Shown in pieces: positions 1-14,560 of a DNA stretch of 14,560 nt. A program made the position numbers and the translations under genes. This DNA comes from a virus. Lineage: Duplodnaviria; Heunggongvirae; Uroviricota; Caudoviricetes. A model generated the notes under the pieces. It was not told the DNA's origin. It ran no database searches and saw only the letters and a list, made by a program, of their open reading frames with translations. Position 1 is the first letter of the stretch. The number at the start of each line of letters is the position of its first letter. The stretch spans positions 1 to 14,560 of IMG/VR virus record IMGVR_UViG_2681813225_000010; one strand, 5' to 3'.

Positions 1-24
1 AGTCTCCAGGATTCCCGGGGCGGT

Positions 25-3852
<3,828 letters not shown>

Positions 3853-4042
3853 GCTTACCTTCCCTGAACGAGCTAACATAAATGCGCCCTTTCTAGCACA
3901 GCGAAAAAATGTAAATCCTGATAGCAATATGATTGAAAATTAATAACTTTTCGTTAGGCAGTTTTGGGTGTGAGTTGCAAGAGGGGAGACTACTGAATAA
4001 CTCAAGTTTTATAATCGAGGGGAAAATGGTGATGGCGTTCAT

Positions 4043-4075
4043 AGCAAAACGCCCTCAACCATAAAGGTCGAGGGC
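4043..4075 (-). terminator. Rho-independent terminator downstream of tRNA-Asn
   Basis: On the minus strand a 7-bp GC-rich stem (CGCCCTC/GAGGGCG, 4050-4056 and 4069-4075) with a 12-nt loop is followed by TTTTGCT (complement of 4043-4049). Confidence 0.5.
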
Positions 4076-4165
4076 GCTTAAGATGTTAAAAACCCGCTAT
4101 CCGTTAAAAAACAATGTTCAACTAAGGTCAGTGACATTGCGCTAAAAAAGCGAATTTTTAGAATT

Positions 4166-4241
4166 TGGCTCCTCTGACTGGACTCGAACCAGTGACATAC
4201 GGATTAACAGTCCGCCGTTCTACCGACTGAACTACAGAGGA
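4166..4241 (-). tRNA. asnT: tRNA-Asn (anticodon GUU)
   Basis: The reverse complement reads UCCUCUGUAGUUCAGUCGGUAGAACGGCGGACUGUUAAUCCGUAUGUCACUGGUUCGAGUCCAGUCAGAGGAGCCA, a 76-nt cloverleaf with GUU anticodon and CCA end. The paralog name is from context (next to mtfA and yeeJ), since E. coli tRNA-Asn copies are identical. Confidence 0.93.
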
Positions 4242-4259
4242 ATCGTGTGAACGGGGCGC

Positions 4260-4288
4260 ATATTACTTAGCGGTACCTTGTCTGTCAA
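4260..4288 (-). promoter_or_regulatory. Putative sigma70 promoter of the tRNA-Asn gene
   Basis: Minus strand shows -35 TTGACA (complement of 4283-4288), a 17-bp spacer, -10 TAATAT (complement of 4260-4265), then a GC-rich discriminator (GCGCCCCG) about 11 nt before the mature tRNA 5' end, typical of stringently controlled tRNA promoters. Confidence 0.5.
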
Positions 4289-4341
4289 CACTAAATTTCA
4301 TAAGTCATTTCAATTGGTTAATTAATCTGCAAAGTTGTTAA

Positions 4342-5139
4342 TTAATGAACATTCGTCGCCGAAAACGAGTCTGTATCATTAGTGCGATGCAGTCTCTGCA
4401 AAGGATCTTGTTGATAAAATTGGCAGAAACGTTGCCACAATGAAGGGAAACGAGGAGCAAAAAGTTCTGGGGCGCTAAAGAAATATTCAGAAAGTACGGC
4501 AAAACATTCAGCAGGATCACTGGCAGCATAAGCATCAATGCTCGCCGCATTCTCGCCAACCAATTCGATTTCTTCCTGAATGTTGTTCATTGCAGCATGA
4601 AGATCGTGTTCCCAGCCAGCAACCTCACGCAACGGAATAAAGGGAACTCCGCTGGCGCGATCGCCGTTACGGGTGTCCAGCTTATGAGCGACTTCATGAA
4701 TAATCAGGTTAAAACCAGAAGCATCAAAAGAATCTTGTATATCCAACCAGTTCAAAACGATAGGCCCTTGCTGCCAGCTCTGACCTGACTGAACAATACG
4801 TTGGTTATGCACCAGACCGATATCGTCTTCCCATTCATCATCGACCACAAATGGCGCAGGATAAATTAAGACTTCATGAAAACCATCCAGCCATTCCAGT
4901 CCTAACTCCAGAACGGGTAGGCAAAATAGAAGTGCTATCCGGCAGCTTCTTAATGAATCCAGTTCAAAGCCCTGTAAAGGAACAAGCCGCTTTTGCTGTA
5001 AAAAACGTTCGGCAAGAGTGACTAATTTGCTTTGTTCCTGTTCCGTCAGACCCGTTAAAAGGGGGATCGATAGTGCTTCCTGCCAGGGAAGGGCAGTTTG
5101 ATGTGCTGATTCTTGTACTTTCCAGGGCCACTTAATCAT
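4342..5139 (-). CDS. mtfA: MtfA (Mlc titration factor A), zinc-dependent peptidase family, 265 aa
   Basis: ORF track 4342..5178(-). Start trimmed to the ATG giving [11 protein letters not shown] (complement 5137-5139). Contains the HEVAH zinc-binding motif ([10 protein letters not shown]). Sits between tRNA-Asn and serU as in E. coli. Confidence 0.9.
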
Positions 5140-5188
5140 CGTTTTGCTCGCAAACTCGTCACTTGAACAAAATTGCACGGACAGGGAC

Positions 5189-5197
5189 TGTTAAAAT
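5189..5197 (+). promoter_or_regulatory. Putative extended -10 element (TGtTAAAAT) of a serU promoter
   Basis: TGTTAAAAT at 5189-5197 lies about 35 nt upstream of the mature tRNA-Ser 5' end. No convincing -35 found. Confidence 0.3.
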
Positions 5198-5232
5198 GCC
5201 AAATTTCCTGGCATCATGGCAACCATCTGAAC

Positions 5233-5322
5233 GGAGAGATGCCGGAGCGGCTGAACGGACCGGTCTCGAAAACCGGAGTGGGGGCAACTCCACCGGGGGT
5301 TCAAATCCCCCTCTCTCCGCCA
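5233..5322 (+). tRNA. serU: tRNA-Ser (anticodon CGA), 90 nt including long variable arm and CCA
   Basis: GGAGAGAUGCCGGAGCGGCUGAACGGACCGGUCUCGAAAACCGG... with anticodon loop CUCGAAA (anticodon CGA), long variable arm, T-arm GGGGGUUCAAAUCCCCC, and CCA at 5320-5322. Prophage-type genes begin immediately 3'. Confidence 0.93.
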
Positions 5323-5367
5323 AAATTCAATCACTTATACATCATTAAGTCAGTGACAAAAATCACA

Positions 5368-5404
5368 CTTGGAATTACTTGGAATATTTTCTTGGAATAT
5401 TTTC
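5368..5404. repeat. Three direct CTTGGAAT repeats, the last two inside an exact 13-bp tandem repeat (TTGGAATATTTTC x2); candidate integrase arm-type binding sites in attL
   Basis: CTTGGAAT at 5368-5375, 5378-5385 and 5391-5398. TTGGAATATTTTC at 5379-5391 and 5392-5404. The first copy sits on the last integrase-fragment codons and the other two lie downstream of its stop, between that fragment and the tRNA 3' end. Confidence 0.3.
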
Positions 5405-5845
5405 AGGTAACGGGACATCAAGTGTCGGTGAAACTTTAACCTTCCTGTCATAGATTAGCACTTGCCCCTCGGTTTTGTGACCAGAGAAAAGTTGCTTATC
5501 CCGACTGCTTCCTTCATAGTCTGAAATTCCTTTCGCCTTCAGATCATGAAAGGTGAAGTCGGTTAAAATACCTGAAATTTTGCCTGCGCGATTTCTTGCT
5601 TCTACCCACATTTCGTTAAAGCCTTTGTACATATATCGGTTGCCGTATTGATTACTGATTACATAGGCGGATGTTGGTAACTGTTTTGCTTTTTCGATCG
5701 CCGCCTGTAATCGTGGACTCCATGCTTTTATCTGTTTTTTTCCTGTTTTCCCTTGCTGGATAAAGATTCCGTCGTTTCCAATCTGCTCCCATTTCAGCGA
5801 TAACACATCGGAAACCCTCGCTGCACACAGATAGGCAATTTCCAT
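5375..5845 (-). pseudogene. Tyrosine recombinase (phage integrase) C-terminal catalytic-domain fragment only (156 codons); N-terminal half absent
   Basis: The translation carries the C-terminal catalytic signature of lambda-family integrases (FTFHDLKAKG..., LFSGHKTEGQVLIYDRK with the presumed catalytic Tyr). It reads toward the tRNA 3' end. No upstream minus-strand ORF of 60 aa or more continues it (5846-6078), and full-length enzymes are roughly 330-400 aa. Confidence 0.75.
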
Positions 5846-6078
5846 TGCGATAAAAACAGGAAGAGGTGCAACGCTTAATACTGGTGTACGTCAGTTGCCT
5901 GCTGAGAGATGTCCTGCGATTGAACGAGCAACAAAAGGTGGTGTCCTGTGTGAAGAACTTCGTCCTGATGTTGATTGGACATACTTACGACGCTCGTCAT
6001 GTTATTCGCAGAATATGTCGATGAAGCAACCAAATGACGAAAACGATCATACCCGAAGCATCAAGAGGCAAATGATTC

Positions 6079-6504
6079 ATGAAAATCAAGCATGAACACA
6101 TCCGCATGGCGATGAATGCCTGGGCGCGTCCTGATGGCGAAAAAGTTCCAGCAGCTGGAATAACCCAGGCTTATTTTGAGTTGGGGATGACGTTTCCTGA
6201 ACTGTATGACGACAGCCATCCGGAAGCCCTGGCTCGCAATACCCAGAAAATTTTCCGCTGGGTAGAGAAAGACACCCCTGATGCAGTTGAAAAAATTCAG
6301 GCGTTGTTACCAGCGATCGAAAAGGCAATGCCACCTTTGCTGGTGGCCAGAATGCGCAGCCACAGTTCAGCTTATTTTCGGGAGCTGGTGGAGACGCGGG
6401 AGCGACTGGTGAGAGACGCTGATGATTTTGTCGCAGTGGCAATCGCCGGTTTCAATCAGATGAACCGTGGTGGCCCGGCAGGAAATGCTGTGGCAGTACA
6501 TTGA
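6079..6504 (+). CDS. YdaT-family prophage protein (141 aa)
   Basis: ORF track. N-terminus MKIKHEHI... is as I recall for YdaT-like proteins of Rac-type prophages. It sits immediately upstream of the O-like and DnaC-like genes (ydaT-ydaU-ydaV order). AAGAGG SD-like motif 11 nt upstream. Confidence 0.65.
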   Translation: MKIKHEHIRMAMNAWARPDGEKVPAAGITQAYFELGMTFPELYDDSHPEALARNTQKIFRWVEKDTPDAVEKIQALLPAIEKAMPPLLVARMRSHSSAYFRELVETRERLVRDADDFVAVAIAGFNQMNRGGPAGNAVAVH

Positions 6505-6575
6505 CTGACAATAGCCGTATCGAATCGCTTCCGGCAACTCGTGAGTAAAAAGATTCGGTATCAGAAGAGGTGAGT

Positions 6576-7658
6576 ATGGCTAACGCCTGGCTCAGATTAT
6601 GGCATGACATGCCAAATGACCCTAAGTGGCGAACAATTGCCAGGGTGTCAGGGCAGCCAATTGCAACAGTGATGGCAGTGTATATCCACCTCCTGGTGAG
6701 CGCGTCACGAAATGTCACGCGAGGTCACATTGATGTCACGACAGAAGATTTGGCAAGTGCGCTCGACGTGACAGAAGAGGTAATTGATTCAATTTTGCAG
6801 ACGATGCAGGGGCGGGTACTTGATGGTGATTTAATCACTGGATGGGAAAAACGCCAGGTGCTTAAAGAGGACAACGGCAATATTTCGCAAACCGCAAAAT
6901 CTCCTGCAGAGCGCAAGAGGGCGCAGCGAGAGAGGGAAAGAAAGCGGGAACAAAATGGCGATTGTCACGGCGCGTCACGAAATGTCACGCACATGTCACG
7001 ACGAGTCACGACAGATAAAGATACAGATAAAGATACAGATAAAGATACAGATCAAGAAGATCAAAACACTATGGTCCATGGCGTAAAAAACGCCACGAAC
7101 CAGGCAGGGGATGTTCAGACCGTCAATCCTGGTCAGCCAGCAGGCACGACACCGGAAGCCGATTCAGCGTATGCGCTGAAAGCCGATTCGGGCGCTGTGC
7201 AGCAGGTGATGACCGCAAGGCCGGAGCAATCACACCAACTGCAGCAGCCTGAAGCCGATTCCGCCATTCAGCGGGAAGCCGATCGGGTAGTCCCGGAAAA
7301 CACCGGGCAGCCTGTGGGACGAGTGGATTATCCGGATGTGTTCGAACAGGTCTGGCGGGAATACCCGTTGCGTGCTGGGGCAAACCCGAAGAAATCCGCT
7401 TTCAGTGCCTGGAAGGCCAGATTACGCGAGGGGGTGCCACCAGAGGCCATACTGGATGGTGTGAGGCGTTACGCAAGATACCTGGCGGCTACCGGGAAAA
7501 CGGGAACGGAATTTGTTCAGCGAGCGACGACGTTTTTTGGGCCGGACCGGAATTTTGAAAACCCCTGGTTGCTCCCGGTAAGCGGCACGAACAACCAGCG
7601 TTGTGTGAATCATATTTCTGAACCGGATACCGAAATTCCGCCGGGATTCAGGGGGTGA
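6576..7658 (+). CDS. Phage replication initiation protein (lambda O-like / YdaU-like) containing the replication origin
   Basis: ORF track 6570..7658. I favour the ATG at 6576 (MANAWLRLWHD...), which has AGAAGAGG upstream. The gene contains two iteron arrays and a tandem repeat (see repeat features), like lambda ori inside O. It directly precedes a DnaC-like loader gene. Confidence 0.8.
   Translation: MANAWLRLWHDMPNDPKWRTIARVSGQPIATVMAVYIHLLVSASRNVTRGHIDVTTEDLASALDVTEEVIDSILQTMQGRVLDGDLITGWEKRQVLKEDNGNISQTAKSPAERKRAQRERERKREQNGDCHGASRNVTHMSRRVTTDKDTDKDTDKDTDQEDQNTMVHGVKNATNQAGDVQTVNPGQPAGTTPEADSAYALKADSGAVQQVMTARPEQSHQLQQPEADSAIQREADRVVPENTGQPVGRVDYPDVFEQVWREYPLRAGANPKKSAFSAWKARLREGVPPEAILDGVRRYARYLAATGKTGTEFVQRATTFFGPDRNFENPWLLPVSGTNNQRCVNHISEPDTEIPPGFRG
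6701..6745. repeat. Iteron array 1: four GTCAC(G) repeats phased at 10-11 bp
   Basis: GTCAC at 6704, 6714, 6724 and 6735. The 20-mer CGCGTCACGAAATGTCACGC (6701-6720) recurs exactly at 6971-6990. Confidence 0.6.
6961..7052. repeat. Iteron array 2 (five GTCAC repeats) followed by an A+T-rich 12-bp tandem repeat (ACAGATAAAGAT x3.5); candidate ori core
   Basis: GTCAC at 6964, 6974, 6984, 6995 and 7005 (spacing 10, 10, 11, 10). Then ACAGATAAAGAT at 7011-7022, 7023-7034 and 7035-7046, plus a partial copy to 7052. In the protein this region reads DKDTDKDTDKDTD. Confidence 0.6.
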
Positions 7659-7664
7659 TGTGGC

Positions 7665-8411
7665 ATGAAAAACATTGCGGCAGCCGGGGTTCTTGAACGT
7701 ATTCGCAGACTTGCACCACAGGCGTCGGTTCCACCGTACCGGACGGTGGAGGAGTGGCGGGAATGGCAACTTGTTGAAGGACGAAAACGCAGCGAGGAGA
7801 TTAACCGCCAGAATCACCAGTTGCGGGTGGAAAAAATCCTGAATCGTTCGGGCATCCAGCCTCTGCACAGCAAATGCTCGTTTGCGAATTATCAGGTGCA
7901 GAACGACGGGCAAAAATACGCGCTGAGCCAGGCCAAATCCATAGCTGACGAACTGATGACCGGGTGCACGAATTTTGTGTTCAGCGGTAAAACCGGCACC
8001 GGGAAAAATCACCTTGCAGCGGCGATGGGTAACCGGCTGATGGCGAAGGGGCGCAGCGTGATTATCGTCACCGTGTCTGATGTCATGAGCGTGTTGCATG
8101 ACAGCTACGACAACGGCAAATCCGGGGAAAAATTTTTACAGGAGCTTTGCAGTGTTGATTTGCTGGTCCTGGATGAAATAGGCGTTCAGCGGGAGACGAA
8201 AAACGAGCAGGTGGTATTACACCAGATAATTGATCGCCGGACAGCATCACTGTGCAGTGTCGGGATGTTAACAAACCTGAATCATGCCGCAATGAGCACG
8301 CTTCTTGGTGAGAGGATTATGGACCGCATGACCATGAACGGTGGTCGGTGGGTGACGTTTAACTGGGATAGCTGGCGTCCAAATGTCAGCAATCAGAGGG
8401 TTGTGAAGTAA
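7665..8411 (+). CDS. DnaC-like replicative helicase loader (AAA+ ATPase, IstB/DnaC family; YdaV-like)
   Basis: Walker A FSGKTGTGKNHLAAAMG and Walker B LLVLDEIG. The ATG lies 6 nt after the O-like stop, with AGGGGGTGA upstream. Confidence 0.85.
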   Translation: MKNIAAAGVLERIRRLAPQASVPPYRTVEEWREWQLVEGRKRSEEINRQNHQLRVEKILNRSGIQPLHSKCSFANYQVQNDGQKYALSQAKSIADELMTGCTNFVFSGKTGTGKNHLAAAMGNRLMAKGRSVIIVTVSDVMSVLHDSYDNGKSGEKFLQELCSVDLLVLDEIGVQRETKNEQVVLHQIIDRRTASLCSVGMLTNLNHAAMSTLLGERIMDRMTMNGGRWVTFNWDSWRPNVSNQRVVK

Positions 8412-8432
8412 TTTTTGTTGGAGGACGTTTTA

Positions 8433-9149
8433 ATGGAAACTGTATTTGACGCACTGAAAGCACTGAAAAAAGCCTCTTCACAGGTAGTGGCATCGCGCCT
8501 TGGAATCAGCCGCGAAGATGCTGTCAACGAACTGTGGAAACTGAAGCGCCGTGGTGAAGCGGATAACAAGGGTTCGATGTGGTGGCTGATTCAGGCTGGT
8601 GAAAGTGAACCAGTGTCACCGGTACCGAAAGTGACAGCGCAAATGCTGACTGAGGCGATTGAACATCATGGCCCACAAACGGCGGATGAGCTGGCACTGA
8701 TGTTCGGGATTACCTCCCGCCGGGCGAATTCATCACTGGCCATGGCAATCAGCAAAGGGCGTCTGATTCGCGTGAATCAGGGCGGTAAATTTCGGTACTG
8801 CATACCGGGCGCTGATTTACCGGCTGAGCCGAAAGCCGCATCCATAGCGGAAACGGATGGTAAAGCCTTTCCTCAGCCAGCAGGTGTTGCGTTACCAGTC
8901 GGGGAAGCGGAAACACAGGAAGAAATAAAAACGGAAAGTGTGGCGGTCACAGTGCAGTCACAGCCGTCGTTCACCAGAAAGCATCCGGATGGTCTGATTT
9001 TACCATCGCTGCATGTGGCTAACCGCGAGCTGCGCCGGGCAAAAGGTCAGGTTCAGAAGTGGGAGCGAGTCTGCGCCGCGCTGCGGGAGCTGAACAAGTG
9101 CCGGGATATTCTCCGGGATATTACCGCCACCAGAGAACAGCAGCGGTGA
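8433..9149 (+). CDS. Prophage protein with two N-terminal winged-helix-like segments and a C-terminal coiled-coil-like tail; function unknown
   Basis: ORF track 8415..9149 begins at an alternative start codon. I prefer the ATG at 8433 (METVFDALK...), with GGAGGA 8 nt upstream. It follows the DnaC-like gene, as ydaW-type genes do. Confidence 0.65.
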
Positions 9150-9181
9150 GTGGGTGGAAGACGTGGTGCCGGGCGGAAATC

Positions 9182-9463
9182 ATGATACTCCGGCAGTGTG
9201 CGGGAACGATGAAGGTAAAAAGCGTTGGCGCACTTATCGGACGAACTGAAGCGGCAGTGAGAACGAAGGCACGGGAGCTGGGCATCAGCATGATGTTACG
9301 TGGTGATTTTCACCCGTCGGCAAAATATTCTCAGCGTGATATTGAGCTGGCGCGGCAACTGCATCAGAGAGGCATGCAAAGAAGGGAAATTGCCAGAAAA
9401 TTAGGCATGCCGCTGCGCATAGTGAATAACTACGTTTATTTCGACAGGAGGGTGTCTGCGTGA
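9182..9463 (+). CDS. Small basic protein with HTH-like segments; putative DNA-binding regulator
   Basis: In-frame ATG at 9182 (MILRQCAG...), with an alternative ATG at 9209 (MKVKS...). The C-terminal QRREIARKLGMPLRIVNNYV looks like a helix-turn-helix. ORF 9059..9463 in the track is an extension overlapping the upstream gene. Confidence 0.5.
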   Translation: MILRQCAGTMKVKSVGALIGRTEAAVRTKARELGISMMLRGDFHPSAKYSQRDIELARQLHQRGMQRREIARKLGMPLRIVNNYVYFDRRVSA

Positions 9464-9687
9464 AAATCCTGTATCAGGATTACGGCCCGGTGGGGCAGGT
9501 GGTTATCAGCAGTACTGTAATGGAGTTTCGGAAGCATAACCGTGTGGTGGATGCTGTGCTGTTAACCTGTCCGGGGATATCGGCGAGTCGTGCAGGTGTG
9601 TTTATTATGAAGACGAAATTATATGGCAGTAAGGCGTGGATAAAGAAGGCGTATCGTGTAGCGTTGCAGGAGGTTAACAGTGAGTGA
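9460..9687 (+). CDS. Hypothetical small basic phage protein (75 aa)
   Basis: GTG start overlaps the upstream stop (GTGA, 9460-9463). AGGAGGG lies 9 nt upstream. No recognisable motif. Confidence 0.45.
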   Translation: MKILYQDYGPVGQVVISSTVMEFRKHNRVVDAVLLTCPGISASRAGVFIMKTKLYGSKAWIKKAYRVALQEVNSE

Positions 9688-9991
9688 AATTAAAGAAATG
9701 CCGGTAGTTCGTGACGGATATGGCTACTGGACACATCCTGAATATGAAAAATTCTGTGATGGTCGGGAATATATTTCAACGGAAGAGTTTAACGCCTGGA
9801 TGGAGGAAAATAATCTTCAATACGTCCTCTGCTTCAGAGATGAAGGATGTGCTGACCTTGATGCGTGTGATGCTGATATTTCTGCATGGGAACCGGAACG
9901 ACCAGAGGGCGATGGCTGGTTTATTGGTTCCATTCATGATACGGAAGATGGCCCGGTTTGTGTCTGGTTGCGAAATAAGGCTGAAGCATAA
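9680..9991 (+). CDS. Hypothetical strongly acidic small protein (103 aa); possible DNA-mimic-type anti-restriction/anti-defence candidate
   Basis: GTG start at 9680 with AGGAGG 6 nt upstream; overlaps the previous gene by 8 nt. By my hand count about 25 of 103 residues are Asp/Glu and about 8 are Lys/Arg. Confidence 0.5.
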   Translation: MSEIKEMPVVRDGYGYWTHPEYEKFCDGREYISTEEFNAWMEENNLQYVLCFRDEGCADLDACDADISAWEPERPEGDGWFIGSIHDTEDGPVCVWLRNKAEA

Positions 9992-10337
9992 AGGCGATAA
10001 ACCAACTAACAACTAAATACTGAAGATTTAAATCAGAAACGATTTTTATTAAATCCTTAACCGGAGGGATTCCTGCACCCTCAGAACATCAGGAGGCCGC
10101 CCGAAAGGGCGGTAAGAAATGAAACATTATTTAGAAAAAATTACCCACGAAAGAGCAGAACAACAGAGTTTCTGTTTTTCATTCTGTTTATAGTGTTGAT
10201 GATACCGATATCCCCGCTATTACTGGTCTGGATAATTGGAAGGACATTTGAACCAGTTATTGAGCTATATACCGATGTGACATGGGAATCATTCAGCGCA
10301 CTGCACAATAAAATTAATCCGTATAAGGAAAACTGAT

Positions 10338-10895
10338 ATGAGCACTATTACCAGAGAACGCGCGGAGATTAAATCATACATCACAGGCTTCCTGAGCGAC
10401 TCGGCGCACGATAACAAGTCTTCAGACAGCCTGCTGGCTAATGTGTTTCGTATCGCGCTGGCATCACTGGAAGCAGAGCCGATAGCAATGGTAGTGCCTG
10501 ATGAAATGGATTTGCTTACCTGCCATCTCGACGGTGTAACTAAAACATATGCTGATGGCTGGAACGCCTGCCGCGTCGCCATGCTTCAGGCCGGAAACTT
10601 TCGGGAAAATAAGAATTCGTCAACCAACAATTTTCGGGAAATCTCGGAAACGTCAACCAGATCTCCGATAACTCTGGATGGCTGGATAAGCTGTACTGAG
10701 CGAATGCCTGAAAAGAGCCAGAACGTGCTTATTTCGATGAATATCGATAGCGAGGCTGGGCCATTAATATATTCCGCACGCTATCTCGGAGGCACGTTCC
10801 GGCGCGGAGGTATAGCAGTTAGTCCGGGTAATGATCTTAGGCAAGCAACCCACTGGATGTCGCTACCAGAACCGCCGCAGGAGGTGAATCAATGA
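10338..10895 (+). CDS. Phage protein with an N-terminal domain of unknown function and a C-terminal DUF551-like domain
   Basis: ORF track. The C-terminus (DGWISCTERMPE...THWMSLPEPP) matches the DUF551 signature as I recall it. No search was run. Confidence 0.65.
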   Translation: MSTITRERAEIKSYITGFLSDSAHDNKSSDSLLANVFRIALASLEAEPIAMVVPDEMDLLTCHLDGVTKTYADGWNACRVAMLQAGNFRENKNSSTNNFREISETSTRSPITLDGWISCTERMPEKSQNVLISMNIDSEAGPLIYSARYLGGTFRRGGIAVSPGNDLRQATHWMSLPEPPQEVNQ

Positions 10896-10975
10896 CCTGG
10901 CCTGAAGCATTCACAACGGTAGGAATTGCGATGGCGGTGGCGCTGGTGGTGTATTCGATTTGCCGCTGGGGATAA
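10892..10975 (+). CDS. 27-codon ORF for a hydrophobic (single predicted TM) peptide, translationally coupled to the upstream gene
   Basis: The ATG at 10892 overlaps the upstream stop (ATGA). A strong SD (AGGAGGTGA, 10880-10888) lies 3-4 nt upstream. Product MTWPEAFTTVGIAMAVALVVYSICRWG. Below the 60-aa cutoff of the ORF track. Confidence 0.4.
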   Translation: MTWPEAFTTVGIAMAVALVVYSICRWG

Positions 10976-10982
10976 AAACGGT

Positions 10983-11010
10983 TTGCGGGAAAAGGATAGT
11001 TAAGTAGAAT
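10983..11010 (+). promoter_or_regulatory. Putative promoter of the hok/mok mRNA
   Basis: -35 TTGCGG (10983-10988), 16-bp spacer, -10 TAGAAT (11005-11010). The predicted start near 11015-11017 coincides with the 5' element that pairs with the transcript 3' end. Confidence 0.4.
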
Positions 11011-11062
11011 TGCAGCGGGTGCTTGAGGCTATCTGCCTCGGGCATGAACACCAACGGCAGAT

Positions 11063-11137
11063 AGAGAAAAGCCCCAGTTAACATTACGCGTCCTGCAAGA
11101 CGCTTAACATTAATCTGAGGCTCAATCCATGCTGAAC
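11063..11137 (-). ncRNA. sok: Putative Sok-like antisense RNA overlapping the mok translation initiation region; ends approximate
   Basis: Minus-strand promoter-like elements: -35 TTGCCT (complement of 11167-11172), 17-bp spacer, -10 TAACCT (complement of 11144-11149). The predicted transcript would be antisense to the mok SD and start codon. A U-run (complement of 11061-11066) could mark the 3' end, but I found no clean terminator hairpin. Confidence 0.3.
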
Positions 11138-11341
11138 ACATGTAGGTTAGCCTCTTACGTGCCGAAAGGCAAGGAGAAGCAGGCTATGAAGCAGCAAAAG
11201 GCGATGTTAATCGCCCTGATCGTCATCTGTTTAACCGTCATAGTGACGGCACTGGTAACGAGGAAAGACCTCTGCGAGGTGCGAATCCGAACCGGTCAGA
11301 CGGAGGTCGCTGTCTTCGTAGACTACGAATCTGAGAAGTAA
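11129..11341 (+). CDS. mok: Mok (modulation of killing) reading frame, an in-frame N-terminal extension of hok
   Basis: ATG at 11129 with GAGG 8 nt upstream. The N-terminus MLNTCR... resembles chromosomal mokC as I recall it; the frame continues through hok. Confidence 0.55.
   Translation: MLNTCRLASYVPKGKEKQAMKQQKAMLIALIVICLTVIVTALVTRKDLCEVRIRTGQTEVAVFVDYESEK
11186..11341 (+). CDS. hok: Hok/Gef-family type I toxin (51 aa membrane peptide)
   Basis: MKQQKAMLIALIVICLTVIVTALVTRKDLCEVRIRTGQTEVAVFVDYESEK has a TM segment followed by the conserved TRK(D/S)LCE...REVAAF-like C-terminal region of Hok/Gef toxins. AAGGAG lies 9 nt upstream of the ATG. Confidence 0.85.
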   Translation: MKQQKAMLIALIVICLTVIVTALVTRKDLCEVRIRTGQTEVAVFVDYESEK

Positions 11342-11348
11342 GAGACCA

Positions 11349-11407
11349 GGCGGGGGAGTAATCTCCCGCCACCTCTGATGTGTCAGGCATCCTCAACGCA
11401 CCCGCGC
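11349..11407 (+). promoter_or_regulatory. hok mRNA 3' structure: GC-rich terminal stem-loop plus an fbi-like element complementary to the mRNA 5' end
   Basis: Stem-loop GGCGGGGG-AGUAAU-CUCCCGCC at 11349-11370. The 3' segment CCTCAACGCACCCGC (11391-11405) is complementary to GCGGGTGCTTGAGG (11015-11028), giving 8 bp + 6 bp with one bulge. Confidence 0.55.
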
Positions 11408-11460
11408 TTTACCATACTGAAAATGCTGTTTGAATGTTCATCTCTGAAAGAGGACTATGA

Positions 11461-11805
11461 ATGAAAAAGGTATTGATTGCAGCACTTATTTCCGGTGTGT
11501 CTTTTGGCGCTTTTGCACAGCAGGGTGGTTTCCAGGGGCCAGAAGCAGAGCGTTCAACAGTAGCGCAGGCAAAAGAACTGAAGGATGATGCATGGGTTAT
11601 CCTTGAAGGGAGCATCGTTAAAAAAGTGGGTGATGAACGTTATGAGTTTCGTGACAATAGCGGGACAATTGTCACGGATATTGATGACAGCGTATGGGCC
11701 GGGCAGAATGTTTCTCCGAAAGACAAAGTAAGAATTGAGGGTGAAATTGATAAAGACCTGAGCAGTGTTGAAGTTGATGTAAAGGCACTGAAATTATTAA
11801 AGTAA
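11461..11805 (+). CDS. YgiW/YdeI-family (BOF, bacterial OB-fold, DUF388) periplasmic protein with signal peptide
   Basis: Signal peptide MKKVLIAALISGVSFGAFAQQ and clear similarity to YgiW-type proteins (QGGFQGP..., TIVTDIDD..., VEVDVK). AAAGAGGA lies 6 nt upstream. Followed by its own terminator. Confidence 0.85.
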   Translation: MKKVLIAALISGVSFGAFAQQGGFQGPEAERSTVAQAKELKDDAWVILEGSIVKKVGDERYEFRDNSGTIVTDIDDSVWAGQNVSPKDKVRIEGEIDKDLSSVEVDVKALKLLK

Positions 11806-11821
11806 CCGCCCCTGCTTGTTA

Positions 11822-11848
11822 AGCCCGTCTTACTGACGGGTTTTCTGT
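11822..11848 (+). terminator. Rho-independent terminator after the BOF gene
   Basis: Stem CCCGTC/GACGGG (11824-11829 and 11835-11840) with a 5-nt loop, followed by TTTTCTGTTT. Confidence 0.6.
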
Positions 11849-11926
11849 TTGTACATTCCGGCGTATTGCCTTACAATTCGCGCAGTCAGCCTGAACAACT
11901 GACACCTGCTGTCACCGGAGAATCCG

Positions 11927-12199
11927 ATGACACAACACATAAAATCCCACAATTCTGAAGCCGACCCGGAAATTAAGCAGGGGAGGCGTTTTCGTGCGCC
12001 TCAGTATGGCTGGTTTCACTATCTGTTCTGTACGATCGATGAGGCAGATATGCTTCAAGAGGCGTATCTGCGTCGCGGTGTCCGTGTGGAGCTGAGTCTG
12101 AACGCTGATCGTCTGACCTGGACCGTTTCTGTATATCTTCCTGTTCGTGCACATTTGCCACGGACACATGCCTGCTACCGTCAGCGCGTCTGGAGGTAA
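11927..12199 (+). CDS. Hypothetical phage protein (90 aa), first gene of a coupled pair
   Basis: ATG at 11927 with GGAG 6 nt upstream. Its stop TAA (12197-12199) sits just upstream of the GTG start of the next gene. Confidence 0.5.
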   Translation: MTQHIKSHNSEADPEIKQGRRFRAPQYGWFHYLFCTIDEADMLQEAYLRRGVRVELSLNADRLTWTVSVYLPVRAHLPRTHACYRQRVWR

Positions 12200-12200
12200 T

Positions 12201-13250
12201 GTGCGGGTATTACTTCGACCTGTTCTGGTTCCGGAACTCGGGCTGGTGGTCCTTAAGCCCGGTCGTGAATCATTGCCAGTTTTTCATCGCGGCAGGGTGC
12301 TGGTGGAGCCGGAACCGAAAAACATGCGGGCGCTGCCATCTGGAGCGGTTCCTACTGTTCGCCAGCCGCTGGCGGAAGATAAATCACTGCTGCCATTTTT
12401 CAGCGATGAGCGGGTGATTCGTGCAGCTGGCGGCGCTGGTGCACTGTCTGACTGGTTATTACGTCACGTGAAATCCTGCCAGTGGCCACACGGCGATTAT
12501 CATCACAGCGAAACCGTTATTCACAGTTACGGTGCTGGCGCAATGGTGTTGTGCTGGCACTGCGACAACCAGCTGCGCGACCAGACCTCCGAATCACTTG
12601 AGCAACTTACTCAACAAAATCTGACAGCCTGGATGATTGACGTCATACGCCATGTAATGAATGGCACGCAGGAGCGGGAATTATCGCTGGCTGAATTATC
12701 CTGGTGGGCAGTCTGCAATCAGGTGGTGGACGCATTACCTGAGGCAGTATCGCGTCGCTCTCTGGGATTACCGGCGGAAAAAATCCGCTCCGTATACCGT
12801 GAAAGCGACATCATACCGGGAGAACAGACCGCCACCAGCATACTGAAGCAGCGCACAAAAAATATTGCGCTACCGCCTCACACCCACCAGCAACAGAACC
12901 CACCACAGGAAAAGACGGTGGTCAGCATTGCCGTTGATCCGGAGTCTCCGGAATCCTTCATGAAACGACCTAAACGTCGCCGCTGGGTAAATGAGAAATA
13001 CACACGCTGGGTAAAGACACAGCCGTGTGCGTGTTGTGGTAAGCCAGCGGACGATCCTCATCATCTGATTGGTCATGGTCAGGGCGGAATGGGAACAAAA
13101 TCCCACGATATTTTCACGCTACCGCTGTGTCGGGAGCATCACAACGAGCTTCATGCGGATCCGCTGGCGTTCGAAGAAAAGCATGGTTCCCAGGTTGATT
13201 TAATTTTTCGTTTTCTTGATCACGCCTTTGCAACCGGCGTGCTCGGGTAA
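12201..13250 (+). CDS. DUF968-like phage protein with a C-terminal zinc-finger/HNH-like motif (nin-region protein)
   Basis: ORF track gives 12147..13250. I favour the GTG at 12201, 4 nt after a GGAGG motif and just past the upstream stop. C-terminus: CACCGKPADDPHHLIGHG...LCREHHNELH (Cys pairs and HH pairs as in HNH-type folds). Immediately precedes rusA. Confidence 0.65.
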   Translation: MRVLLRPVLVPELGLVVLKPGRESLPVFHRGRVLVEPEPKNMRALPSGAVPTVRQPLAEDKSLLPFFSDERVIRAAGGAGALSDWLLRHVKSCQWPHGDYHHSETVIHSYGAGAMVLCWHCDNQLRDQTSESLEQLTQQNLTAWMIDVIRHVMNGTQERELSLAELSWWAVCNQVVDALPEAVSRRSLGLPAEKIRSVYRESDIIPGEQTATSILKQRTKNIALPPHTHQQQNPPQEKTVVSIAVDPESPESFMKRPKRRRWVNEKYTRWVKTQPCACCGKPADDPHHLIGHGQGGMGTKSHDIFTLPLCREHHNELHADPLAFEEKHGSQVDLIFRFLDHAFATGVLG

Positions 13251-13262
13251 AAGAGGTTACTG

Positions 13263-13622
13263 ATGCGTATAGAGTTTGTTTTGCCTTACCCGCCGACGGT
13301 GAACACCTACTGGCGACGTCGTGGCAGCACATATTTTGTATCAAAAGCCGGTGAGCGTTATCGCCGGGATGTGGCACTTATTGTTCGCCAGCAGCGGCTG
13401 AAATTAAACCTGTCCGGAAGGCTGGCGATAAAGATTATTGCAGAGCCACCGGATAAGCGCCGTCGTGACCTGGACAATATCCTGAAAGCACCACTGGATG
13501 CGCTGACGCATGCCGGACTTCTCATAGACGACGAGCAGTTTGATGAAATCAATATTGTGCGCGGCCAGCTCGTTTCTGGTGGGCGGCTGGGCGTGAAGAT
13601 TTACAAAATTGAAAGTGAGTGA
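13263..13622 (+). CDS. rusA: RusA Holliday-junction resolvase (crossover junction endodeoxyribonuclease)
   Basis: Similarity to RusA as I recall it: PDRRRRDLDNLQKA in the reference versus PDKRRRDLDNILKA here, plus a GGRL motif near the C-terminus. AAAGAGG lies 5 nt upstream of the ATG. Confidence 0.9.
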   Translation: MRIEFVLPYPPTVNTYWRRRGSTYFVSKAGERYRRDVALIVRQQRLKLNLSGRLAIKIIAEPPDKRRRDLDNILKAPLDALTHAGLLIDDEQFDEINIVRGQLVSGGRLGVKIYKIESE

Positions 13623-13630
13623 GCATAAAT

Positions 13631-14185
13631 ATGATATACTCGGAAATTACAGGCAAAAGCGGTGAGCATTTACGCCTGAAAACGCTGGAAAGTGTCTGGA
13701 TCCAGGGGAAACTGCGTATGTGGGGGCGTTGGTCGTATATTGGCGACGGTAAGACGGGAAATATGTTCAACCAATTACTGACCTCTAAAAAGCTGACAAA
13801 AACGGCAATTAACGAGGCGCTCCGGAGGATGAAAAAAGCGGGTCTGGACAAACCTGAACTTGAGGCTTTTTTGTGGGATATGATCAACGGCAATCAAAAA
13901 AGCTGGCTGGCACATTGTACCGATTCAGAGGCGTTAATAATCGACAGGGTTATTGGTGAAGTACTGGCAGGTTATCCCGGGCTGCTCAATGTTCTGAGTC
14001 AGCGTTATGTGGGGCGGGGGATGACTAAGCGCAAAATGGCTGAACTGCTGAATGATGCACATCCGGAATGGAGTTTAAGAACCTGTGAAAGACGCATTGA
14101 GCATTGGCTAAAGGTGGCAGAATTTATTTTGTACAAACCAATGGTTATGGCTTTTGGTATAGATAAAAAAGTTATTGCTTTTTGA
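13631..14185 (+). CDS. Putative late-gene antiterminator Q-like protein (phage 82 / QuuD-type family)
   Basis: Position after rusA and immediately before a promoter-like region and a strong terminator (the PR'-tR' arrangement). Weak motif resemblance to QuuD-type proteins from memory (W-G-x-W, LLTSK, YVGRGMT). The start is ambiguous: the GTG at 13619 overlaps the rusA stop, the ATG at 13631 is in frame. Confidence 0.55.
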   Translation: MIYSEITGKSGEHLRLKTLESVWIQGKLRMWGRWSYIGDGKTGNMFNQLLTSKKLTKTAINEALRRMKKAGLDKPELEAFLWDMINGNQKSWLAHCTDSEALIIDRVIGEVLAGYPGLLNVLSQRYVGRGMTKRKMAELLNDAHPEWSLRTCERRIEHWLKVAEFILYKPMVMAFGIDKKVIAF

Positions 14186-14263
14186 CGTAAAAACTGCTTC
14201 AATTCCGGTACGCTTCGCAAAGCTGTACCGCGAGGCGAATAGCAGACATGGACATTTGAAAGA

Positions 14264-14288
14264 GCCCGCTTTTTGCGGGTTTTTTTAT
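14264..14288 (+). terminator. Strong Rho-independent terminator (tR'-like) downstream of the Q-like gene
   Basis: Stem GCCCGC/GCGGGT (14264-14269 and 14275-14280) with a TTTTT loop, followed by a 6-7 T run (14280-14286). Confidence 0.65.
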
Positions 14289-14409
14289 GACTGAAAAACG
14301 GCACGGGGCGTTAAATGCGCTGGTGGTTGCGAATACCGGTCTTTCTGCTTGCTGGCTTTTTGGACAAGAGTTATTGGTGTGTCACGTTAACCGGAAAGGG
14401 TAAAAAGAC

Positions 14410-14560
14410 ATGCTGAAACAGCAGGATATGACAGAAACCGCCAGAGTTGTGTTTGATGAATTAAGTGCCACCGAACCGGCGACAGTCGGGGAGATTGCAC
14501 AGAATACGTACCTTTCACGCGAACGCTGCCAGCTAATACTGACCCAGCTTGTTATGGCGG
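14410..14560 (+). CDS. 5' part of an ORF running off the window end; product has a winged-helix-like segment
   Basis: ATG at 14410 with a GGAAAGGG purine tract about 9 nt upstream. Translation MLKQQDMTETARVVFDELSATEPATVGEIAQNTYLSRERCQLILTQLVMA... is open to the window edge. Confidence 0.3.
   Translation, partial: MLKQQDMTETARVVFDELSATEPATVGEIAQNTYLSRERCQLILTQLVMA

Follow-up and report, generated by a model that had tools for sequence, protein, structure and literature searches.

We analyzed a 14,560-nucleotide stretch of tailed-phage DNA (Duplodnaviria; Heunggongvirae; Uroviricota; Caudoviricetes; positions 1 to 14,560 of IMG/VR record IMGVR_UViG_2681813225_000010; hereafter, the window), in particular, a DUF1133-family gene near its right end and the DNA between the stop codon of this gene and an intrinsic terminator. 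Together, these most probably (a probability of about 0.85) constitute a late-gene switch of the Q21 superfamily, laid out on the plan of phage 21 and ordinary for a lambdoid prophage. Judging from sequence comparison, relatives keep the geometry of promoter, start-site hexamer, leader and terminator, and this geometry agrees with that annotated for phage 21; homology and predicted fold both support a kinship of the DUF1133 protein with Q21 and its identification as a Q-type antiterminator. That the promoter is active, that transcription starts where predicted, and that pausing, loading of Q and read-through take place, we infer. The elements in question are:

13631-14185, plus strand: Q-like antiterminator gene, ATG to TGA, 184 amino acids, DUF1133 family of the Q21 superfamily (RefSeq 'DUF1133 family protein')
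14165-14180, plus strand: A-tract (14165-14170) and putative −35 element TTGCTT (14175-14180), within the final codons of the Q gene
14181-14188, plus strand: octamer TTTGACGT at the offset of the Q-binding element QBEu, a candidate binding site that holds TTGACG and the Q stop codon
14195-14203, plus strand: putative extended −10 element TGcTTCAAT (TG at 14195-14196, hexamer at 14198-14203)
14209-14214, plus strand: −10-like hexamer TACGCT, a candidate sigma-dependent pause element, with the predicted start at A14210 (range 14208-14211)
14206-14230, plus strand: inverted repeat in the DNA, ten pairs and a bulged T14224
14211-14237, plus strand: alternative 5' RNA hairpin CGCUUCGC/GCGAGGCG, 8 bp, with the 11-nt loop AAAGCUGUACC
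14238-14256, plus strand: unstructured leader linker, single-stranded in the predicted fold of 14210-14290 and poorly conserved between lineages
14257-14287, plus strand: intrinsic terminator, the tR' equivalent (−18.2 kcal/mol, z = −5.9)

The DUF1133 protein and its relationship to Q21

The protein matches the Pfam DUF1133 profile (PF06576) at 341.4 bits, against a cut-off of 23.1, with profile positions 1-176 of 176 covered, and is assigned to PHROG 753 ('anti-termination protein Q-like'). The sole Pfam match to a Q family is PF06530 (Phage_antitermQ; 31.8 bits, curated cut-off 26); the Q proteins of lambda and phage 82 belong to other, unrelated families, and no similarity of the window protein to them was found. 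A search with the single sequence gave a weak match (E = 0.0026) to the Q21 chains in the PDB, and a profile of eight family members, compared with solved structures, reached the same chains at E = 9.1e-8 in two co-linear stretches, namely, the N-terminal W..G.L..WG.W motif and the C-terminal DNA-binding region. The AlphaFold model of the protein has a mean predicted local distance difference test score (pLDDT) of 68, with values of 84-96 in the C-terminal half. When this model was compared with the PDB using Foldseek, the top 12 matches were all Q21 (E = 1.2e-4 to 1.9e-2; target-normalised template-modelling score 0.60-0.70), and the first match to anything else had E = 1.9.

Gene position is consistent with this assignment. 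In the window, the gene lies 3' of DUF968 and RusA and 5' of cargo genes and tRNAs; in Rac-SA53, vB_EcoS-683R6 and KpF5, the DUF1133 gene is the final early gene before the toxin, tRNA and lysis genes, and no second Q gene is annotated between it and them. A genome survey had already named the DUF1133 proteins of Shiga-toxin (Stx) phages Q antiterminators on the strength of HHpred (PMC8136144), and AntQ of Gifsy-1, encoded directly 5' of isrK, perturbs termination when expressed (PMC4825925). The first-pass annotation, made from the letters of the window, had called the gene Q-like, and the family scores (341 bits for DUF1133, PF06530 above its cut-off), the profile match (E = 9e-8), the fold and the gene position all bear this out. 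We also looked within the Q gene for a paQ-like CII site (TTGYN6TTGY), as found in phage 21; none is present in 13631-14185, and the count over the whole window is at chance level.

A promoter-leader-terminator module shared with relatives and with phage 21

Homologous loci were collected by an alignment-based scan with one genome per species, which yielded 51 loci across Enterobacterales; the scan loci, five phage records and the window, where the gene was intact and the downstream DNA readable, make up a set of 47. In 43 of the 47, an intrinsic terminator of the CCCGC-loop-GCGGG-T-run type follows the Q stop codon at a distance of 23-93 nt, and in most, a predicted sigma-70 promoter abuts or overlaps the stop codon and a leader of ~65-85 nt follows. 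Linkage of module and gene was also examined in viral contigs by scanning for the block GCTTCGCRAAGCTRTAY: at least 119 stretches were found and 80 were read, among which 71 had at least 650 nt upstream. A DUF1133 gene lies directly 5' of the block in 59 of these 71; in six further stretches, it lies ~0.9 kb upstream, with another gene between; one has insertion sequence (IS) elements upstream, and the remainder are chance matches in unrelated coding DNA. Phage Rac-SA53 (positions 4038-4491 of locus L002) carries, after its DUF1133 gene, TTGATT-17-TATCTT and a TAAGAT hexamer, with a different type of leader and no clear CCCGC-type terminator ahead of pertussis-like toxin genes.

The putative promoter overlaps the end of the Q gene, with a 17-nt spacer between TTGCTT and TTCAAT. 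The −35 element of the window aligns with TTGACT, TTGCAA or TTGATT in the 47 loci and the viral contigs, and the AAAAAAGTT-TTGC stretch stays ahead of the module even when a different gene lies upstream. Modules of the E. coli and Klebsiella types share TTGCnn-17-TGcTT(C/G)AAT, and in ~40 distinct variants of the E. coli type, AAACTGCTTCAAT is near-constant and the adjacent octamer variable; distant genera have near-consensus promoters that match at 10 of 12 positions, for example, TTGACT-16-TATAGT or TATGAT. Support for the predicted hexamers of the window thus comes from their conservation in relatives, not from the match to the consensus. All elements listed in the first-pass annotation (hexamers, bulged hairpin and terminator) are found in the sequence, with corrections to position and role. 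TTGACG was placed correctly (14182-14187), and TTGCTT and TTCAAT, given as 14176-14181 and 14199-14204, were each one base too far to the right. The suggestion that TTGACG might itself be a −35 element was rejected: only 10 nt separate it from TTCAAT, so that the two cannot act jointly as a promoter, 17 nt downstream of it lies CCGGTA, and its spacing is wrong to every −10-like hexamer; it sits at the offset of the phage 21 Q-binding element and is, therefore, not a −35.

The start of transcription was predicted from the −10 spacing and a conserved T-A step: in the alignment, nearly all loci have A at the start position and T immediately before it. Across the 47 modules, the aligned hexamer reads TAnnnT in 45 and TAnGCT in 41, with the variants TAAGCT (16), TAGGCT (12), TATGCT (7) and TACGCT (6, the form in the window). 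In phage 21, the annotated pause element is TAAGCT(G), immediately 3' of the start site (OL657228). The octamer TTTGACGT begins 28 nt 5' of the TAnGCT hexamer, which is the offset of QBEu in phage 21. At this offset, 12 of the 47 modules have an octamer with at most two mismatches to ATTGAGCA or AATGAGCA, compared with only a handful at the other tested offsets; a second repeat is not evident in these 12. Exact copies of ATTGAGCA and AATGAGCA occur at the phage 21 offset in L032 and L028, which are Enterobacter and Citrobacter prophage modules. The Q proteins of these two loci are of the DUF1133 family, not classic Q21.

For phage 21, we relied on the annotated record OL657228 and the structures 6P18, 6P19 and 6JNX. 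The order in that record is Q stop codon, −35 TTGACA, QBEu ATTGAGCA, QBEd AATGAGCA, −10 AACACT, start A, pause element TAAGCT(G), terminator, tRNAs and holin. The window resembles it in having a Q protein of the same superfamily, by sequence and predicted fold, a predicted promoter beginning only a few bases from the Q stop codon, a hexamer of the form TAnGCT at the start, an octamer position 28 nt 5' of the hexamer that carries Q21-like subsites in relatives, and an intrinsic terminator less than 100 nt away, followed by tRNAs and cargo. It differs in that the window protein is only ~18% identical to Q21 in a structural alignment and belongs to a separate Pfam family, DUF1133; in that the direct pair of 8-bp repeats between −35 and −10 is not found in the window; in that the −10 element of the E. 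coli type lies 2 nt nearer to the hexamer, which therefore overlaps the predicted start; and in that the leader is ~76 nt long, compared with ~50 nt, and includes a separate 5' hairpin that is absent from phage 21. The first-pass annotation had proposed a module of the PR'-tR' type, and the comparison supports this proposal through the 43 of 47 terminators, the promoters at the stop codon and the match to the geometry of phage 21.

In lambda and phage 82, a constitutive late promoter, a −10-like pause close to that promoter and a short terminated RNA precede Q-dependent read-through into the late genes, and the predicted switch of the window follows the same logic. A sigma-70 promoter overlapping the end of the Q gene (TTGCTT, 17-nt spacer, TGcTTCAAT) would start transcription at about A14210; TACGCT would then hold the sigma-bound RNA polymerase in a promoter-proximal pause, where Q would load, probably from the DNA of the promoter spacer. 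Without Q, the polymerase would stop at 14257-14287 and release an RNA of ~76 nt, with a 5' hairpin, a single-stranded middle part and the terminator hairpin; with Q, it would read through into the downstream genes. The Q/PR' systems of lambda and phage 82, with their 6S-type short RNA, are summarised elsewhere (PMC7547250; bioRxiv 10.1101/651190).

Several observations weigh against this reading. Taken alone, the hexamers of the window match the consensus at 7 of 12 positions, which is not above chance, and a consensus scan called no promoter in 12500-14560. The hexamer TACGCT spans −1 to +5 of the predicted transcript, compared with +2 to +7 in phage 21. The octamer of the window matches the Q21 subsites at 4 of 8 positions, so that its role in Q binding is something we infer, and there is no direct repeat resembling QBEu/QBEd in the window. 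Confidence in the structural model is moderate, with low pLDDT in the N-terminal half. Finally, the prophage has decayed, with a frameshifted integrase, a truncated immunity region and no late genes, and the switch may, therefore, be idle here.

The poor hexamers and the silent promoter scan would also fit a simpler explanation, namely, that the terminator merely ends the early-right operon, whose transcription it would stop as readily, and that the promoter-like hexamers and the hairpin are incidental, with nothing starting there. We consider this very unlikely, given that promoter, start hexamer and leader length are conserved even though the Q proteins are only 35-60% identical, that the promoters of several relatives reach 10 of 12 positions (as in TTGACT-16-TATAGT), that the module is kept as a unit 3' of an unrelated gene in L099, L109 and other loci, and that its geometry equals that of the mapped phage 21 late promoter.

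Terminator, hairpins and the short leader RNA

The terminator, which the first-pass annotation had described as strong and intrinsic, is confirmed as such by its folding energy (−18.2 kcal/mol, z = −5.9). Its stem pairs 14257-14269 with 14275-14287 around a loop at 14270-14274, with a G+C core at 14264-14279 and seven T at 14280-14286. The consensus terminator scan did not list it, likely because the A-rich left flank pairs with the T-run and leaves no free T tail, which is a caveat for the scan. A second terminator-like hairpin reported by that scan (14319-14340) was not significant (z = −0.4), and an antisense match resembling STnc370 (14254-14328; 22.6 bits, against 54) was discarded as reflecting the terminator only. 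The predicted leader, from A14210 to the terminator, is ~76 nt long and folds at z = −4.1, and the whole 14186-14300 stretch at z = −4.3. Just 5' of the terminator lies a three-codon open reading frame, ATG GAC ATT TGA (14248-14259), without an obvious ribosome-binding site and not conserved in relatives.

At its 5' end, the module contains two competing structures. One is the bulged hairpin of the first-pass annotation, a 10-bp stem with one bulge that had been placed at 14207-14230; the stem holds, and the span does not, C14206 being needed for ten pairs, which form between 14206-14215 and 14220-14223 plus 14225-14230. The isolated 25-mer has a folding energy of −11.0 kcal/mol (z = −3.9), matched by none of 200 shuffled sequences. 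Among 24 relatives, the same pairing scheme gives 74% paired positions, compared with 28-50% for slid controls; the inner pairs are kept but mostly invariant, and the outermost three (14206-14208/14228-14230) form in no more than half. In a transcript starting at A14210, the four outer pairs would not be transcribed, and the residual 4-bp stem has only −2.4 kcal/mol (z = −0.4). The proposal that this hairpin occupies the position of a qut or pause element is correct in substance, its 5' arm holding TACGCT, with the reservation that its first 4 nt precede the predicted start. The reading that we prefer for it is dyad symmetry within the conserved start-site block.

The other structure, the alternative RNA hairpin, pairs 14211-14218 with 14230-14237 and is what the predicted transcript forms at its energy minimum (−12.7 kcal/mol, z = −2.3). 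When only the 3' arm was shuffled, the native energy was reached in 0.6% of cases for the window, 0.3% for the Klebsiella/Enterobacter type and 2-6% for several others, compared with 20-50% in Serratia, Yersinia, Edwardsiella and some E. coli variants; an equivalent 5' stem was not found in Serratia, Yersinia and Edwardsiella. The same 5' arm pairs with differing 3'-arm sequences, in a register that varies by lineage, and the sense strand folds, on average, more stably than the antisense strand (24 of 41; Wilcoxon p = 0.011). We nevertheless rejected a 5' RNA hairpin that is universal and covarying: RNAalifold on the 24 relatives retained three invariant pairs, the register shifts, and significance is confined to some lineages. 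We read the conserved DNA block at the start site (the hexamer together with CGCRAAGCTGTA) as the universal feature and the RNA hairpin as a lineage-variable addition, neither universal in the switch nor core to Q loading; its role is most likely in protecting, shaping or stabilising the short RNA.

The dyad (core GCTTCGCAAAGC, perfect as GCTTCGCGAAGC in relatives) could, conceivably, be an operator for a dimeric protein that blocks or tunes the late promoter, with the downstream winged-helix protein or a repressor as candidates. Across genera, the inner palindrome hardly varies in either arm, which fits a DNA site as well as an RNA stem, and conservation of the block extends to lineages with a weak RNA hairpin. 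Yet the bases under the strongest conservation (T, A, G, C and T within 14209-14214) are already explained by the match to the pause element of phage 21, the hexamer is present without any palindrome in the Klebsiella/Enterobacter type, and the downstream gene varies among loci that have the block in common, so that we regard an operator as unlikely.

A second copy of AAGCTG occurs at 14220-14225, 11 nt downstream of the first, in the hairpin loop. A speculative extension of the late-switch reading, to which we give a low probability, is that the DUF1133 branch uses a loading site of its own, made up of the TAnGCT hexamer overlapping +1, the second AAGCTG copy and a lineage-specific 5' RNA hairpin enclosing that copy, which could add a second pause or RNA-level step not seen with the Q proteins of lambda, 21 and 82. 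On the same tentative footing, the ~76-nt RNA, which has no Rfam match, may also have a regulatory function, as a constitutive small RNA, in the hundreds of E. coli genomes that carry it.

A precedent for such an RNA is StxS, an Hfq-binding small RNA (sRNA) that derives from the terminated PR' transcript of Stx phages and is processed from a 258-nt precursor (PMC7547250). StxS and the predicted leader RNA would both arise by constitutive termination just past a Q-controlled late promoter, 5' of cargo genes and tRNAs; no sequence relation between them was found. As an addition to the late-switch reading, not a replacement for it, the ~76-nt RNA might act in trans on host targets as an Hfq-type sRNA, like StxS. 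This is possible but doubtful. The architecture is typical of sRNAs (a 5' hairpin, ~20-25 nt single-stranded and a terminator with seven U), late-promoter leaders have served as sRNAs before (PMC7547250), and the locus is widespread, with at least 80% of 13600-14560 present in 801 of 5426 complete E. coli genomes. The single-stranded middle is, however, the least conserved part of the module, which argues against a conserved seed, and the leader matches no Rfam family. Rfam families gave no match on the leaders of 20 further loci either, and the leader sequence was not found in a literature search.

The IsrK-antirepressor cassette

The order of genes in Gifsy-1 is antQ-isrK-orf45-anrP-isrJ (PMC4825925), which raises the alternative that the leader is the E. 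coli version of IsrK, a short RNA that would pair with its own read-through transcript and activate downstream translation, under an immI-like control by C4 RNA and antirepressor. The Rfam isrK model (RF01394) has a weak match to the window leader over its full length (14212-14285), and isrK directly follows the DUF1133 gene in loci L008, L012, L099 and L109. The score in the window is, however, 19.8 bits against a gathering score of 50, compared with 67-81 bits for the genuine copies in these four loci, where a C4-type antisense RNA and an antirepressor-like gene come after isrK. Neither C4 nor c4-a1b1 RNA has a match in the window or in positions 14000-18000 of locus L001. Complementarity between leader and downstream sequence is not better than that of shuffled leaders (z = +0.5 to +1.6), so that pairing of an IsrK-like leader with the downstream mRNA was rejected, and the predicted read-through fold shows no pairing of the leader with a ribosome-binding site.

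The isrK-C4-antirepressor cassette is, moreover, a separate unit. It also occurs alone, in the nin region of many Stx phages, and in L012, L099, L109 and other loci, a promoter-leader module of the window type follows the antirepressor gene; the leader of this module in L109 is identical to that of the window, and no Rfam match on the leaders of L099 and L109 reaches the gathering score. Since the module persists after the inserted cassette, it is an independent unit, and IsrK, lying within the inserted immI-like cassette, is not the counterpart of the leader in the window. We therefore rejected the leader as an IsrK homologue and consider the IsrK explanation highly improbable. An identity of the module with isrJ was rejected as well: neither the window leader nor the post-antirepressor module of L012 has an Rfam isrJ match at E ≤ 10, and the L012 module matches no other Rfam family at that threshold. 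The cassette between the DUF1133 gene and the late module occupies 3588-4378 in L012, 6372-7210 in L099 and 4399-4597 (minus strand) in L109. A second isrK (81 bits) with a copy of C4 is present at 290-476 of L012, ~3 kb 5' of the first and in the same Salmonella prophage.

Gifsy-1 and the window are, then, alike in one respect and different in another. The DUF1133 gene sits directly 5' of isrK in L008, L012, L099 and L109, in the position of AntQ, so that AntQ, the protein studied by experiment, very probably belongs to the DUF1133 family, judging by position; the DUF1133 proteins of L008 and L012 are 74-79% identical to that of the window. The window, in contrast, has no IsrK, C4 RNA or antirepressor, and in loci with the cassette, the antirepressor gene is followed by the window-type module, at the place that the map of Gifsy-1 gives to isrJ. 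This arrangement suggests that Gifsy-1 has a Q-controlled late promoter other than the published IsrK promoter.

Prophage setting, distribution and implications

The locus very probably represents the cassette that regulates the late genes in a defective lambdoid prophage, integrated beside tRNA-Ser in E. coli. Five complete E. coli chromosomes (for example, NZ_CP027591) contain the last 961 bases of the window with 100% identity, and the 13600-14560 stretch (961 nt, the gene with its flank) is matched in 2638 of the 5426 complete E. coli genomes. In the RefSeq annotation, the order of genes begins with a truncated yeeJ, tRNA-Asn, mtfA and tRNA-Ser, followed by a frameshifted integrase (~5362-5893), which marks the attachment end of the prophage. 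The tRNA-Asn gene is at 4166-4241 on the minus strand and tRNA-Ser(CGA) at 5233-5322; yeeJ encodes an inverse autotransporter adhesin, and an IS3 element lies past the left end of the window (region 25-5900). A lambdoid early-right region follows, with a YdaS fragment, YdaT, replication genes, hok/sok, DUF968, RusA and the DUF1133 gene. The hok/sok toxin-antitoxin locus of this early region spans 11017-11341, with an Rfam sok match of 113.5 bits at 11017-11191 and a Hok/Gef gene annotated at ~11186-11341. The lysis and morphogenesis genes are absent from the lambdoid element, which is therefore a remnant.

Past the terminator (15811-17132 of locus L001) come the genes for a 65-amino-acid winged-helix protein and a 237-amino-acid AraC-like regulator and tRNA-Ile/Arg/Arg; RefSeq then annotates a pseudogene and an oppositely oriented Mu-like prophage. 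The first of these genes begins within the window:

14410-14560, plus strand, running off the window: first downstream gene, encoding the 65-amino-acid winged-helix protein (RefSeq 'TrmB family transcriptional regulator')

Its product matches Pfam TrmB weakly (18.8 bits) and belongs to PHROG 331, of unknown function. The AraC-like regulator is most similar, among NCBIfam models, to YdeO/GadX, both below the cut-off; it falls in a cluster of 2285 members, and its exact sequence is found on at least 1000 contigs. The slot after the terminator is the usual position of cargo in lambdoid phages, and only two regulator genes and three tRNAs are left downstream because the prophage has lost its late genes.

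There is nothing surprising in such a switch in a lambdoid prophage. What the analysis adds is a role and a cis-acting site, each assigned by comparison, for a widespread domain of unknown function, DUF1133, a branch in which promoter, binding-site position and pause hexamer appear to be arranged still as in phage 21. It also tells the IsrK/antirepressor cassette of Salmonella apart from the true late promoter module, which matters for reading the literature on Gifsy-1. Phage induction activates the genes that lie behind switches of this kind (toxins, regulators and tRNAs); the AraC-like regulator and the tRNAs downstream of the window module may, therefore, be under the control of Q.

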